Assembly: GCF_036499525.1 (NCBI RefSeq)
Contig: NZ_DASYDO010000069.1
Coordinates: 56,790-120,789 of the forward strand
Direction: 5' to 3'
DNA from: Luteibacter sp.
GTDB lineage: Bacteria; Pseudomonadota; Gammaproteobacteria; Xanthomonadales; Rhodanobacteraceae
DNA length: 64,000 nucleotides
Shown: piece by piece, positions 40,278 to 46,633 of the stretch
Layout of the letters: every line of letters begins with the position of its first letter
Numbering within the stretch: position 1 is the stretch's first letter
Program-made: the position numbers and the translations under genes
Notes under the pieces: model-generated
The model's database searches: none
Told to the model about the DNA's origin: nothing
The model's input: only the letters and a program-made list of their open reading frames with translations

Positions 40278-41515
<1,238 letters not shown>

Positions 41516-41812: not shown

Positions 41813-42127
41813 TCAGGCGTTGATGCCCGTGATCTCGATTTCGGTGTAGTGCTGACGGTGTCCCTGCGTACGCTTGTAGTGCTTGCGACGACGGAACTTG
41901 ACGATGCGGATCTTATCGGCGCGGCCGTGGGCGCGAACCTTCGCGCTGACGGTGGCACCGGCGACCAGGGGGGCGCCGACGGTGATCGACTCACCTTCGC
42001 CGACGAGGAGGACCTGGTCGAACTGGATGGTGGCATCGACTTCGGCGTTGAGCAGCTCGACGCGCAGGACTTCGCCTGCCATCACGCGATACTGCTTGCC
42101 ACCGGTCTTGATGACTGCGTAGCTCAT
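41813..42127 (-). CDS. rplU: 50S ribosomal protein L21
   Basis: [13 protein letters not shown]...[13 protein letters not shown]. Confidence 0.98.
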
Positions 42128-42189
42128 GGTTAATTCCTGTTGCTGTTTATGTAGTTCTTTTTTGGTGTTGCGGGTGTTGCGAATCGCGA

Positions 42190-42219
42190 ATTATAGCGGG
42201 CCGCAAAAGGCAAGGTCAA
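42190..42219 (-). promoter_or_regulatory. Sigma70 promoter of rplU-rpmA
   Basis: Minus strand TTGACC-18 bp-TATAAT. Confidence 0.7.
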
Positions 42220-42384
42220 TCAGGCGGTTATAGGCGGCCACAGGCCCTGCGCCCGGCCCCGCGAACCCCACTCGCCCTTAACTATCAATCACTTGACCCA
42301 CCCAACCTTCAGGTAGAGGCACGCTCGCGCCGCCGCAGGTTCGGACGGCGAGGCGCAGAGCTTCACGTTCGGGCGGCGAGGCGC

Positions 42385-42527
42385 AGAGCCTTCGGTGTCC
42401 ACCCTCGCTGCTCAGACAGGTCCTCCGCGTTCGATAAGGAAGGCCGCTACCGCGGCCCTTGTATCTGTATGGCCTACGGCCGCTCTCTTGTGCGGAACTC
42501 GCCTCGAGGGTGGACACCGAAGGCTCT
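42385..42527. repeat. 143-bp structured element, copy A, with perfect 23-bp terminal inverted repeats
   Basis: agagccttcggtgtccaccctcg / cgagggtggacaccgaaggctct flanking a 97-bp core. Confidence 0.9.
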
Positions 42528-42741
42528 CCCGATCCCTGAGGCTGACTGCTCGGAGAGCCGCCACCGTGCTAGCCGGGTTGTGGAGCCCCACCCTGCGGAT
42601 TGATACCCGCGTCGGGTACGACCCGTCCGGGCGGAGCCTTGTGCGGCACACGGCGCACCCGCTTAGGTCGAGCAAAAGCCCGTGCCGGCGACAACATTGC
42701 ACGCCAACGGCTCGCCCACCATGCAACCGTATCGCCCGGAA

Positions 42742-42882
42742 GAGAGCTTGGGGCCCACCCTCGAGGCGAGTTCCGCACAAGAGAGCGGCCGTAGGCCATA
42801 TAAGTACATGGGCCGCGGTAGCGGCCTTCCTTATCGAACGCGGAGGACCTGTCTGAGCAGCGAGGGTGGGCCCCAAGCTCTC
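42742..42882. repeat. 141-bp structured element, copy B (inverted relative to A), with perfect 22-bp terminal inverted repeats
   Basis: gagagcttggggcccaccctcg / cgagggtgggccccaagctctc; core is the reverse complement of the A core with 4 mismatches. Confidence 0.9.
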
Positions 42883-43019
42883 CCCGCGAAACGCTCACGT
42901 GTAAAGCGCGATGGCGAACGCCGAGCCTCCGCCCCGAAGCCGAAGGCGAGCCTGATCGCGCGAGACGACACGACCGCCCGCCTGAAGACCGTCCTCGTCC
43001 CCGGTAATGCGTGAAGAAT

Positions 43020-43520
43020 CTATTTCTTCGGGGCGGGCGCGGGCTTGGCCGCGCCGGTAGCGGGGCACTGGCCCTGCGGGTTCAGGGTGCCCTGGCTCTG
43101 CAGCTGGGAGATCATCTGCTTGCCGCGCTCCTGGCCCCACTGCCTGCCGATCTGCATGCCCTCGGCCATGGTGGCCGGCATCTGCGTGATCACCTTCTGG
43201 CCCAGGGGCGAGCGGTAGAACTTGAGCAGGCCGTCGATGTCCTCGGACGTGAAGTGCTTCTGGTAGACCGGAACCATGCGGCCGATCAGCTGGTTGGTGG
43301 CGTTGGCGTCCACGAAACCCTGCCAATAGCTGGCCGGTACGCAGGGCAGCGCGCTTTGCATCACACCCGCCATCTGGCTGTTCATCTGGCTGAGCATGCG
43401 CCCCATGCCGACGGCGTCCATCAGCTGGCGTACCTGCTGCTCGGACGGCACCGCCGCCAGGGCCTGCCCCGCACAACCCGCCAGCACGAGGCCGGCGGCA
43501 ATCCCTGTCCACTTACGCAT
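43020..43520 (-). CDS. DUF2059-family exported protein
   Basis: Signal peptide; VYQKHFTSEDIDGLLKFYRSPLGQK motif; start set at MRKWT. Confidence 0.8.
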   Translation of the reverse strand: MRKWTGIAAGLVLAGCAGQALAAVPSEQQVRQLMDAVGMGRMLSQMNSQMAGVMQSALPCVPASYWQGFVDANATNQLIGRMVPVYQKHFTSEDIDGLLKFYRSPLGQKVITQMPATMAEGMQIGRQWGQERGKQMISQLQSQGTLNPQGQCPATGAAKPAPAPKK

Positions 43521-43721
43521 GCGTGTCTTCCTCTTCGGATGATTGGCTGTGATCCCCCCAGGGGGCCGCGTCATGGTAGCCCCGCCGGGGCCTTGTGGCT
43601 AACCGGCGCGGGACGTCTGCCTGTCCCTCATAACAAATGTGATGAATCGTCAAAAGTCCATGCGGGATGAAGGCCGAAGACCCTTGGTATAGTCGTCGAC
43701 TTCCCCCATTAACGTCGGCAC

Positions 43722-46633
<2,912 letters not shown>

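Follow-up and report, generated by a model that had tools for sequence, protein, structure and literature searches.

A probable truncated Luteibacter MITE with ISL3-type ends and two inverted hairpin modules between rplU and a DUF2059 gene

The insertion between rplU and the DUF2059 gene

The window, by which we mean the whole stretch of 64,000 nucleotides analysed here, comes from a draft genome of Luteibacter sp. in 81 contigs. Pfam searches place the Obg gene (40382–41449), the L27 gene (41535–41792) and the L21 gene (rplU, 41813–42127) on one side of the feature and a DUF2059 gene (43020–43574) on the other, all on the minus strand. The spacer between rplU and the DUF2059 gene is 892 bp long here, compared with 190–430 bp in 29/29 other Luteibacter genomes. 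A near-consensus sigma-70 promoter (TTGACC-18-TATAAT, 42219–42190, minus strand, 11/12) lies upstream of rplU (start 42127). It is the sole promoter-like site in 42000–43200 and is located outside the element described below, the remnant of which begins about 110 bp further upstream.

The long spacer contains two hairpin modules in opposite orientation. Module A (42385–42527, plus strand) has a perfect stem of 23 bp (42385–42407 paired with 42505–42527), a 97-nt core and two small internal hairpins, and module B (42742–42882, minus strand) is the same module inverted, with a B-type stem of 22 bp (42742–42763 paired with 42861–42882). The covariance model R1, described below, scores them at 173.8 bits and, on the minus strand, 171.8 bits, respectively. 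An inverted-repeat search found the arms to be 100% complementary in both modules, with 97 nt between the arms each time. The cores are reverse complements of each other except for four bases within about 13 nt (CTTGTATCTGTAT vs CATGTACTTATAT). These results bear out an earlier note on this DNA, which had described two inverted copies sharing a 97-bp core with four mismatches, placed there within about 10 bp, and perfect terminal stems of 23 and 22 bp. The internal hairpins that it named for the core, GGCCGC-TACC-GCGGCC and GGCC-TAC-GGCC, were found in both A and B. The fold of each module is far more stable than that of shuffled sequences on either strand (z = −6.5 to −8.8; 0/200 shuffles equal it). 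The inverted similarity extends past the stems, giving 189-nt arms (42381–42569 and 42699–42887) with 81% complementarity. Across species, the A-type stem (AGAGCCTTCGGTG..) consistently belongs to the left module and the B-type stem (GAGACCTTGGTG..) to the right one, as seen in an alignment of 12 A...B pairs.

Modules A and B are not separate elements but internal parts of one insertion of about 693 bp (about 42328–43020). Its left part is an IRL-side subterminal remnant (42328–42384, plus strand, left edge approximate), which is followed by module A and a central spacer of 214 bp (42528–42741). Only about 40 bp of the spacer beside each module is conserved between species, and the spacer has no protein-family match. 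Between module B and the right end lies an IRR-side subterminal segment (42883–42998, minus strand), which is conserved across species. The right end itself, outside the A...B pair, is an IRR-type terminal inverted repeat of 22 bp (42999–43020, minus strand), which reads GATTCTTCACGCATTACCGGGG from the end inward and has one mismatch to the GGTTCTTCACGCATTACCGGGG of this genome. The same IRR type is present on other copies in the genome and matches the IRR of ISL3 insertion sequences. The last base of the IRR doubles as the C in the stop codon of the DUF2059 gene (43020–43022, which reads CTA on the plus strand). In an alignment with seven empty sites, the right junction coincides exactly with the end of the IRR at this stop codon, where the relatives read cTACTTCTT. 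The same alignment identifies a remaining 8-bp target copy, TATTTCTT (43021–43028), where the relatives have TACTTCTT. Comparison of empty sites in relatives, which the earlier note had proposed, thus located an unoccupied counterpart: the stretch of about 693 bp is absent from the rplU/DUF2059 site in all 29 of the other Luteibacter genomes.

The left end of the insertion is incomplete. Host-like sequence continues up to about 42297. The window aligns with intact copies in its own genome (on contigs C22, C21, C42, C2, C15, C18 and C60) only from about GGTTCGGACGGCGAGGCGCAGAGC, and its similarity to the copies of genome G003 goes back to GCGCCGCCG at about 42328. As homology to intact copies starts only at about 42328–42338, the IRL and the adjoining 50–70 bp are missing. 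Having lost its IRL, the copy can no longer move and is a truncated fossil of about 693 bp. On the other side, the own-genome copies on C16, C19, C8, C62 and C46 are homologous up to window position 42958, and the centre of the window element has no other copy in the own assembly. With one terminal repeat and no second target copy, the window copy owes its status as a transposon to its sister copies and to the empty site.

A 28-bp tandem duplication (42336–42361 and 42364–42389) repeats the outer base of module A. The same position carries a variable-number tandem repeat of 25–30-bp units in 2 to 5 copies (L090:~1900–2011; L081 downstream of 4154; window 42336–42389), in which each unit consists of the first 13 nt of the stem plus 12–17 nt upstream; copies other than that in the window have 3 to 5 such units. 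This repeat may have arisen by slippage at a DNA hairpin. The orthologous empty spacers of G003 and G009 (L223 and L224) contain a REPIN-like inverted pair, gggagccgcttcagcggcgatgggtgc...ggcacagccggctccca, which is absent from the window. The rplU–DUF2059 spacer turns over quickly between species.

A genus-restricted family with ISL3-type ends

Searches of this and related genomes, which the earlier note had suggested, retrieved further copies, and in many Luteibacter genomes A and B come back together as a single unit. With the 143-nt module, 19 matches were obtained in the own draft genome. Most of them lie at contig ends, indicating that the repeat breaks the assembly. Module matches were found in 16/25 Luteibacter genomes, at 3 to 36 per genome, and in 0/16 genomes from other families of the order. 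The cultured strain CT11-34 (CP168517) has at least 22 copies. The covariance model R1, built from 148 distinct module copies, recovered the module in 7/9 Luteibacter genomes. The same model found it in 0/142 genomes when applied to 29 other genera of the family, so that, within the genomes searched, the module is restricted to Luteibacter.

The full layout of the element consists of an IRL (GGTTCTTCACGGAAGTCCGGGG), about 100 bp, a module on the plus strand, a variable centre of 200–250 bp, a module on the minus strand, about 100 bp, and an IRR (GGTTCTTCACGCATTACCGGGG). The IRL is on the A side and the IRR on the B side, and each abuts an A or T run. Around some 260 module copies, an inward-facing terminal repeat is located 60–165 bp upstream, and the inverted partner is usually about 180–260 bp downstream. 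Full copies are about 650–800 bp long. We delimited 45 distinct elements bounded by terminal repeats, with a modal length of 650–750 bp, and shorter derivatives of 195–507 bp also exist. The modal length exceeds the size usual for MITEs (below about 500 bp), which is a matter of convention and not of mechanism. The 8-bp flanks match at six or more of eight positions in 34/45 elements and perfectly in nine. Target duplications other than simple homopolymer runs include TTTTTGTT, ACAAAAAA, CTTTTTTA, AAGAAAAA and AAAAAAAG. A/T makes up 89% of the flank positions, against a genomic G+C content of 65.5%, and many flanks are the T-tract of an obvious hairpin-plus-T terminator.

A Pfam search of the ORFs in the element, including those spanning the central spacer, gave no match. 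A coding element was considered and rejected: the palindrome gives rise to ORFs of 153 and 154 aa that mirror each other and match nothing in Pfam, and the ATG in the module is not conserved. The family thus has the marks of a MITE, namely IS-type terminal repeats, 8-bp duplications, no transposase gene, multiple copies, and both filled and empty sites. The proposal in the earlier note of a non-autonomous mobile element holds for the whole unit of about 0.7 kb and fails for the 141–143-bp hairpins as mobile units, since their stems are not transposon ends. A literature search for a published Luteibacter MITE returned nothing relevant.

The ends of the family (GGTTCTTCRCGG..CCGGGG, 22 bp) are the IRL and IRR of 1.3-kb insertion sequences of the ISL3 family. 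A pattern search across the order showed that 1.3-kb elements with the same ends are present in other genera. They encode transposases of 406–428 aa with the Zn_ribbon_ISL3, HTH_Tnp_ISL3 and DDE_Tnp_ISL3 domains (E about 1e-67), and the transposases L194 and L195 match PF01610, PF13542 and PF14690. One 1.3-kb ISL3 element has a clean 8-bp duplication, ACAAAAAA. A whole insertion sequence of 1306 bp makes up contig C80 of Luteibacter genome G021, and its transposase is 73% identical to that of G136 (L181 vs L194). In the own genome, a remnant of the cognate insertion sequence on contig C50 consists of an IRR and about 68 C-terminal codons. A strong ISL3 transposase match was obtained only in G000 and G021 among the 31 Luteibacter genomes scanned, indicating that most MITE-bearing genomes lack any ISL3 transposase. 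A comparison of the MITE with four ISL3 insertion sequences showed that only the terminal 22 bp is common to them; therefore, the MITE is not a simple deletion derivative of the insertion sequence.

Several other relationships were considered and rejected. An ISL3 insertion sequence on C12 of the own genome has different ends (GGCTCTCTCTCGATCC..), and its transposase is only 28% identical to the cognate one, arguing against it as the partner. This ISL3-family element (C12:~43980–44808), with the different end GGCTCTCTCTCGATCCGTGTGG, is cut by the contig end. The terminal repeats are all that the MITE shares with the four ISL3 insertion sequences, which speaks against an antisense function towards the transposase. 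As for extra transposase-binding sites in the module, the best IRL/IRR match lies at the 95th percentile of shuffles and in a variable stretch. Finally, a remnant of a hairpin-bracketed gene cassette for a four-helix-bundle protein (PF05635) was discounted, as such genes show no similarity to the element. Single PF05635 genes (23S rRNA intervening-sequence protein) occur in 5/31 Luteibacter genomes (L258–L262 in G019, G001, G002, G009 and G008), and the loci L258 and L260 are bracketed by inverted GGGAGATGGGA-type repeats.

The own genome also has a second MITE family with ISL3-type ends. Its representative (C63:8471–9267) is 797 bp long, with 89-nt inverted ends and an IRR-type repeat at both termini, and relatives are found at C57:1727–2192, C71:108180–108467 and C68:32923–33223. 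The hairpin of the second family is another one, about 240 nt long with a perfect 25-bp stem (CCAGCAGCCGTCGCCCTCGCCGCGA...), and is accompanied by REP-like sequences. Part of this hairpin recurs in G003, within the right half of its MITEs, and in a long module variant of genome G001.

Taking the anatomy, ends, duplications and empty site together, we consider it about 80% probable that the feature is a copy of a Luteibacter-specific ISL3-type MITE, mobilised by an ISL3 transposase, with the two modules as integral passengers. The transposase assigned to it, like any role of the hairpin, is an inference.

The fold of the module and its relation to the element

Covariation was scored on an alignment of 148 distinct copies (A1) against 500 shuffles, and the partner columns were slid by 1–3 as a control. 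In the proposed structure, 97.2% of the cells are paired. Thirteen pairs have changed on both sides (276 cells); none of the 500 shuffles reaches any of the measures, and slid partners give 4–24 such cells. The pattern seen in the two window copies, whose stems diverge in sequence without loss of pairing, therefore extends to the family. The covarying positions of the terminal stem are 3, 5, 7, 9, 12, 14 and 17. The internal hairpin GGCCGC/GCGGCC covaries as well (TGCGCC/GGCGCA, TGCCGC/GCGGCA, GTCCGC/GCGGAC and GGCTGC/GCAGCC), whereas a long-range helix (columns 41–45 with 118–122) and the GGCC-NNN-GGCC hairpin are invariant and thus uninformative on pairing. Several unpaired segments, such as the loop segments CTGCTCAGACAGGTCCTCCGCG and CTTGTGCGGAACTCGCCT, are nearly invariant among the 148 distinct copies.

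The mismatches of the terminal stem are distributed unequally between the strands. On the plus strand of the module, 175 cells are of the C·A type and 21 of the G·T type. At stem positions 5 and 14, the intermediates between Watson–Crick states are C·A in 71 and 57 copies, respectively, compared with T·G in one copy each. Parsimony on a maximum-likelihood tree counts 78 vs 18 events (C·A vs G·T), and 28 vs 16 without positions 5 and 14; two stem positions thus account for most of the one-sided signal, which also depends on a tree inferred from sequences of 143 nt. C·A mismatches on the plus strand correspond to G·U (or G·T) wobbles on the complementary strand, and the consensus-fold energy (RNAalifold) is −65 kcal/mol on the minus strand vs −48 kcal/mol on the plus strand. 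A one-sided distribution of mismatches fits selection of the fold in one single strand; neither a protein-binding site in duplex DNA nor a symmetric cruciform would predict such a bias. The comparison of copies therefore points to selection acting on a fold in single-stranded RNA or DNA. Because the orientation of the module is fixed relative to the nearer end, the favoured strand reads outward and has its 3' end at the nearer terminus. This polarity would be compatible with outward or read-through transcripts, and equally with the transferred strand of DDE transposition.

No evidence was obtained that the module moves alone. In six genomes, a joined-flank query (105 bp upstream plus 120 bp downstream) retrieved more than 100 matches, none of which extends across the junction, where each of them stops or starts. 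No MITE lacking the module was thus seen among them; likewise, there is no target duplication flanking the module itself. Genome G001 has at least 21 modules, and the ISL3-type end pattern has no match there. Two GTAG-type REPs in direct orientation bracket its module, at about −59 and +56 to +69, and the unit has a different end, GGTTCGCCGC.., and begins with GGTTCGCCGCTTCGCGGCGCATGCC. Hence, the module persists in scaffolds with diverged or different ends. The REPs flanking the G001 modules read GTAGGAGCGCGCCTGCGCGCGA. The long module variant of about 260 nt in this genome (L201, L208 and L219) lies about 500–760 nt downstream of a standard module; it keeps the stem-proximal boxes (CCCTCGAGGCGAGTTC ... 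CTGTCTGAGCAGCGAGGG) and has a longer loop with an extra GGGGGCCGGCC-NNNN-GGCCGGCC hairpin.

These observations bear on an alternative in which the 143-bp hairpin is an old, smaller mobile element, with the 22–23-bp stems as its ends, that was nested in an ancestral ISL3-type MITE and is now a passenger, its stems being kept complementary by intrastrand repair or gene conversion in an extruded hairpin and not by functional selection. The perfect terminal inverted repeats of the module would fit such an origin, as would its presence in two or more scaffolds that differ in their outer ends (ISL3-type and G001-type). The further hairpin in the loop of the long G001 variant indicates that nesting does happen, and the second ISL3-ended MITE family of the own genome carries a different hairpin with a 25-bp stem. 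However, the more than 100 matches in six genomes included no MITE without the module, no duplication flanks the module, stem repair leaves the near-invariant loops (CTGCTCAGACAGGTCCTCCGCG and CTTGTGCGGAACTCGCCT) unexplained, and symmetric repair does not predict one-sided mismatches. We therefore regard a nested element as improbable.

Considerably less probable still is that a single-strand (HUH/Y1) transposase acts on the modules, which would then resemble REPINs moved by RAYTs or palindromic elements derived from IS200/IS605, with the ISL3-type ends being incidental. Elements moving as single-stranded DNA typically have hairpins with compensatory changes and a strand-specific constraint, and the G001 module has GTAG-type REPs on its flanks and no ISL3-type ends. 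However, most copies sit at a fixed distance and orientation within ISL3-type repeats and 8-bp duplications, the mark of a DDE transposase, and the module was never seen alone. IS200/IS605-type elements have subterminal hairpins without terminal repeats or duplication, which differs from the organisation of the family. The suggestion of an HUH-transposase substrate in the earlier note is thus contradicted by the outer 22-bp repeats and 8-bp duplications, while its view that the element is distinct from REPs proved correct: GTAG-type REPs are a different sequence family. REPs and REPINs are short GTAG palindromes, in inverted pairs, without terminal repeats or duplication; the family is built differently, and the GTAG REPs of G001 are separate sequences flanking the module.

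In the least probable alternative, the locus would mainly encode a structured non-coding RNA, belonging to a new family of sRNAs or cis-regulatory RNAs, and the repeats would be gene copies. This reading could draw on the strongly covarying fold, the conserved unpaired segments and module-bearing contigs in public runs labelled RNA, including a root metatranscriptome, but these contigs are unstranded, showing presence at most, and some of the runs may contain DNA. In addition, transposon ends and target duplications delimit the copies, which are absent from orthologous sites. Rfam gave no match to the modules (at E up to 10 for the window region and up to 1 for five related loci), and the only promoter-like site in 42000–43200 is that of rplU, which the element does not include. 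In the inward direction, weak terminator-like scores were obtained for the small internal hairpins.

Proposed course of events and comparison with known systems

We propose the following pathway for the ISL3-type MITE with its integral modules. An ISL3-family DDE transposase would act in trans on the protein-less element by recognising its 22-bp ends. The element would insert into 8-bp A/T-rich targets, which would be duplicated; in a genome of 65% G+C, these would mostly be terminator T-tracts. The window copy would have inserted where the DUF2059 gene ends, at its stop codon, some 110 bp upstream of the rplU promoter, and the later loss of the IRL and about 50–70 bp would have rendered it immobile. 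Both 141–143-bp hairpins would travel as integral passengers, with stems that stay paired through compensatory changes, and the tolerated mismatches, nearly all of which are assigned to the outward-reading strand, would reflect a selected single-stranded fold. If this fold forms in RNA, through read-through or outward transcription, the 22–23-bp duplex would suit RNase III-type processing or a structure at the transcript end. Alternatively, it may form in the transferred DNA strand during transposition.

More tentatively, the 143-nt module could be a functional single-stranded nucleic acid needed for the spread or persistence of the element, either as an outward-strand RNA or as the folded transferred DNA strand in ISL3 transposition; we consider this extension of the proposal rather improbable. 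Such a module might recruit the transposase or a host factor, or, as a signal of the RNase III or terminator-like type, it might allow insertions behind genes to be tolerated.

ISL3-mobilised MITEs are already known as a kind of selfish DNA; what is new here is a genus-restricted MITE family of Luteibacter, and the unusual feature is that its hairpins stay paired through many compensating changes. For annotation, the family explains the repeat that breaks the own-genome assembly at a dozen or more contig ends, as well as the large unannotated spacer beside the rplU–rpmA–obg operon. For the biology of mobile elements, it adds a genus-wide, ISL3-ended MITE family that lands in terminator T-tracts and whose transposase is gone from most carriers. 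Almost all full copies contain the 143-nt fold twice, and the fold appears to be selected on one strand. Should it be required in cis, the family would offer a tractable system for studying the use of structured single strands by ISL3 transposases or by host RNA processing.

Among known systems, the Correia, ERIC and RUP-type MITEs are small, non-autonomous and located near gene ends, and their transcripts are able to form long duplexes, which are potential targets of RNase III. Their likeness to the Luteibacter element is a functional analogy only; the sequence, the ends and the likely mobilising transposase family all differ. REPINs, which are moved by RAYT transposases, have inverted arms that are paired via compensatory changes, are abundant in intergenic DNA and are apparently constrained as a single-stranded fold. 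The Luteibacter modules likewise have two inverted arms, compensatory pairing, an abundance in intergenic DNA and an apparent single-stranded constraint. However, their stems close a conserved 97-nt core and not a short variable spacer, and the element has DDE-type terminal repeats and duplications.

Relatives by their ends are the ISL3 insertion sequences with GGTTCTTC.. ends (the 1306-bp element in G021 and those in G136, G165 and G315), which have the same 22-bp IRL and IRR types, 8-bp A/T-rich duplications and sites beside A/T runs. In contrast to the MITE, they have a gene for a transposase of 406–428 aa and no hairpin module, the terminal 22 bp being all that the two share. A further close counterpart is an ISL3-mobilised MITE of Microcystis aeruginosa, which is 187 nt long with GGCTCTTCG ends and 8-nt target duplications (PMC11448079). 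Both elements are non-coding and multi-copy, have a stem-loop fold and 8-nt duplications, and end in sequences that match ISL3 (GGCTCTTCG there and GGTTCTTCR here) (PMC11448079). The Luteibacter element differs in being about four times longer, with two inverted halves that each contain a covarying hairpin module of 141–143 nt, in having an interior unrelated to the insertion sequence, and in being limited to one gammaproteobacterial genus.
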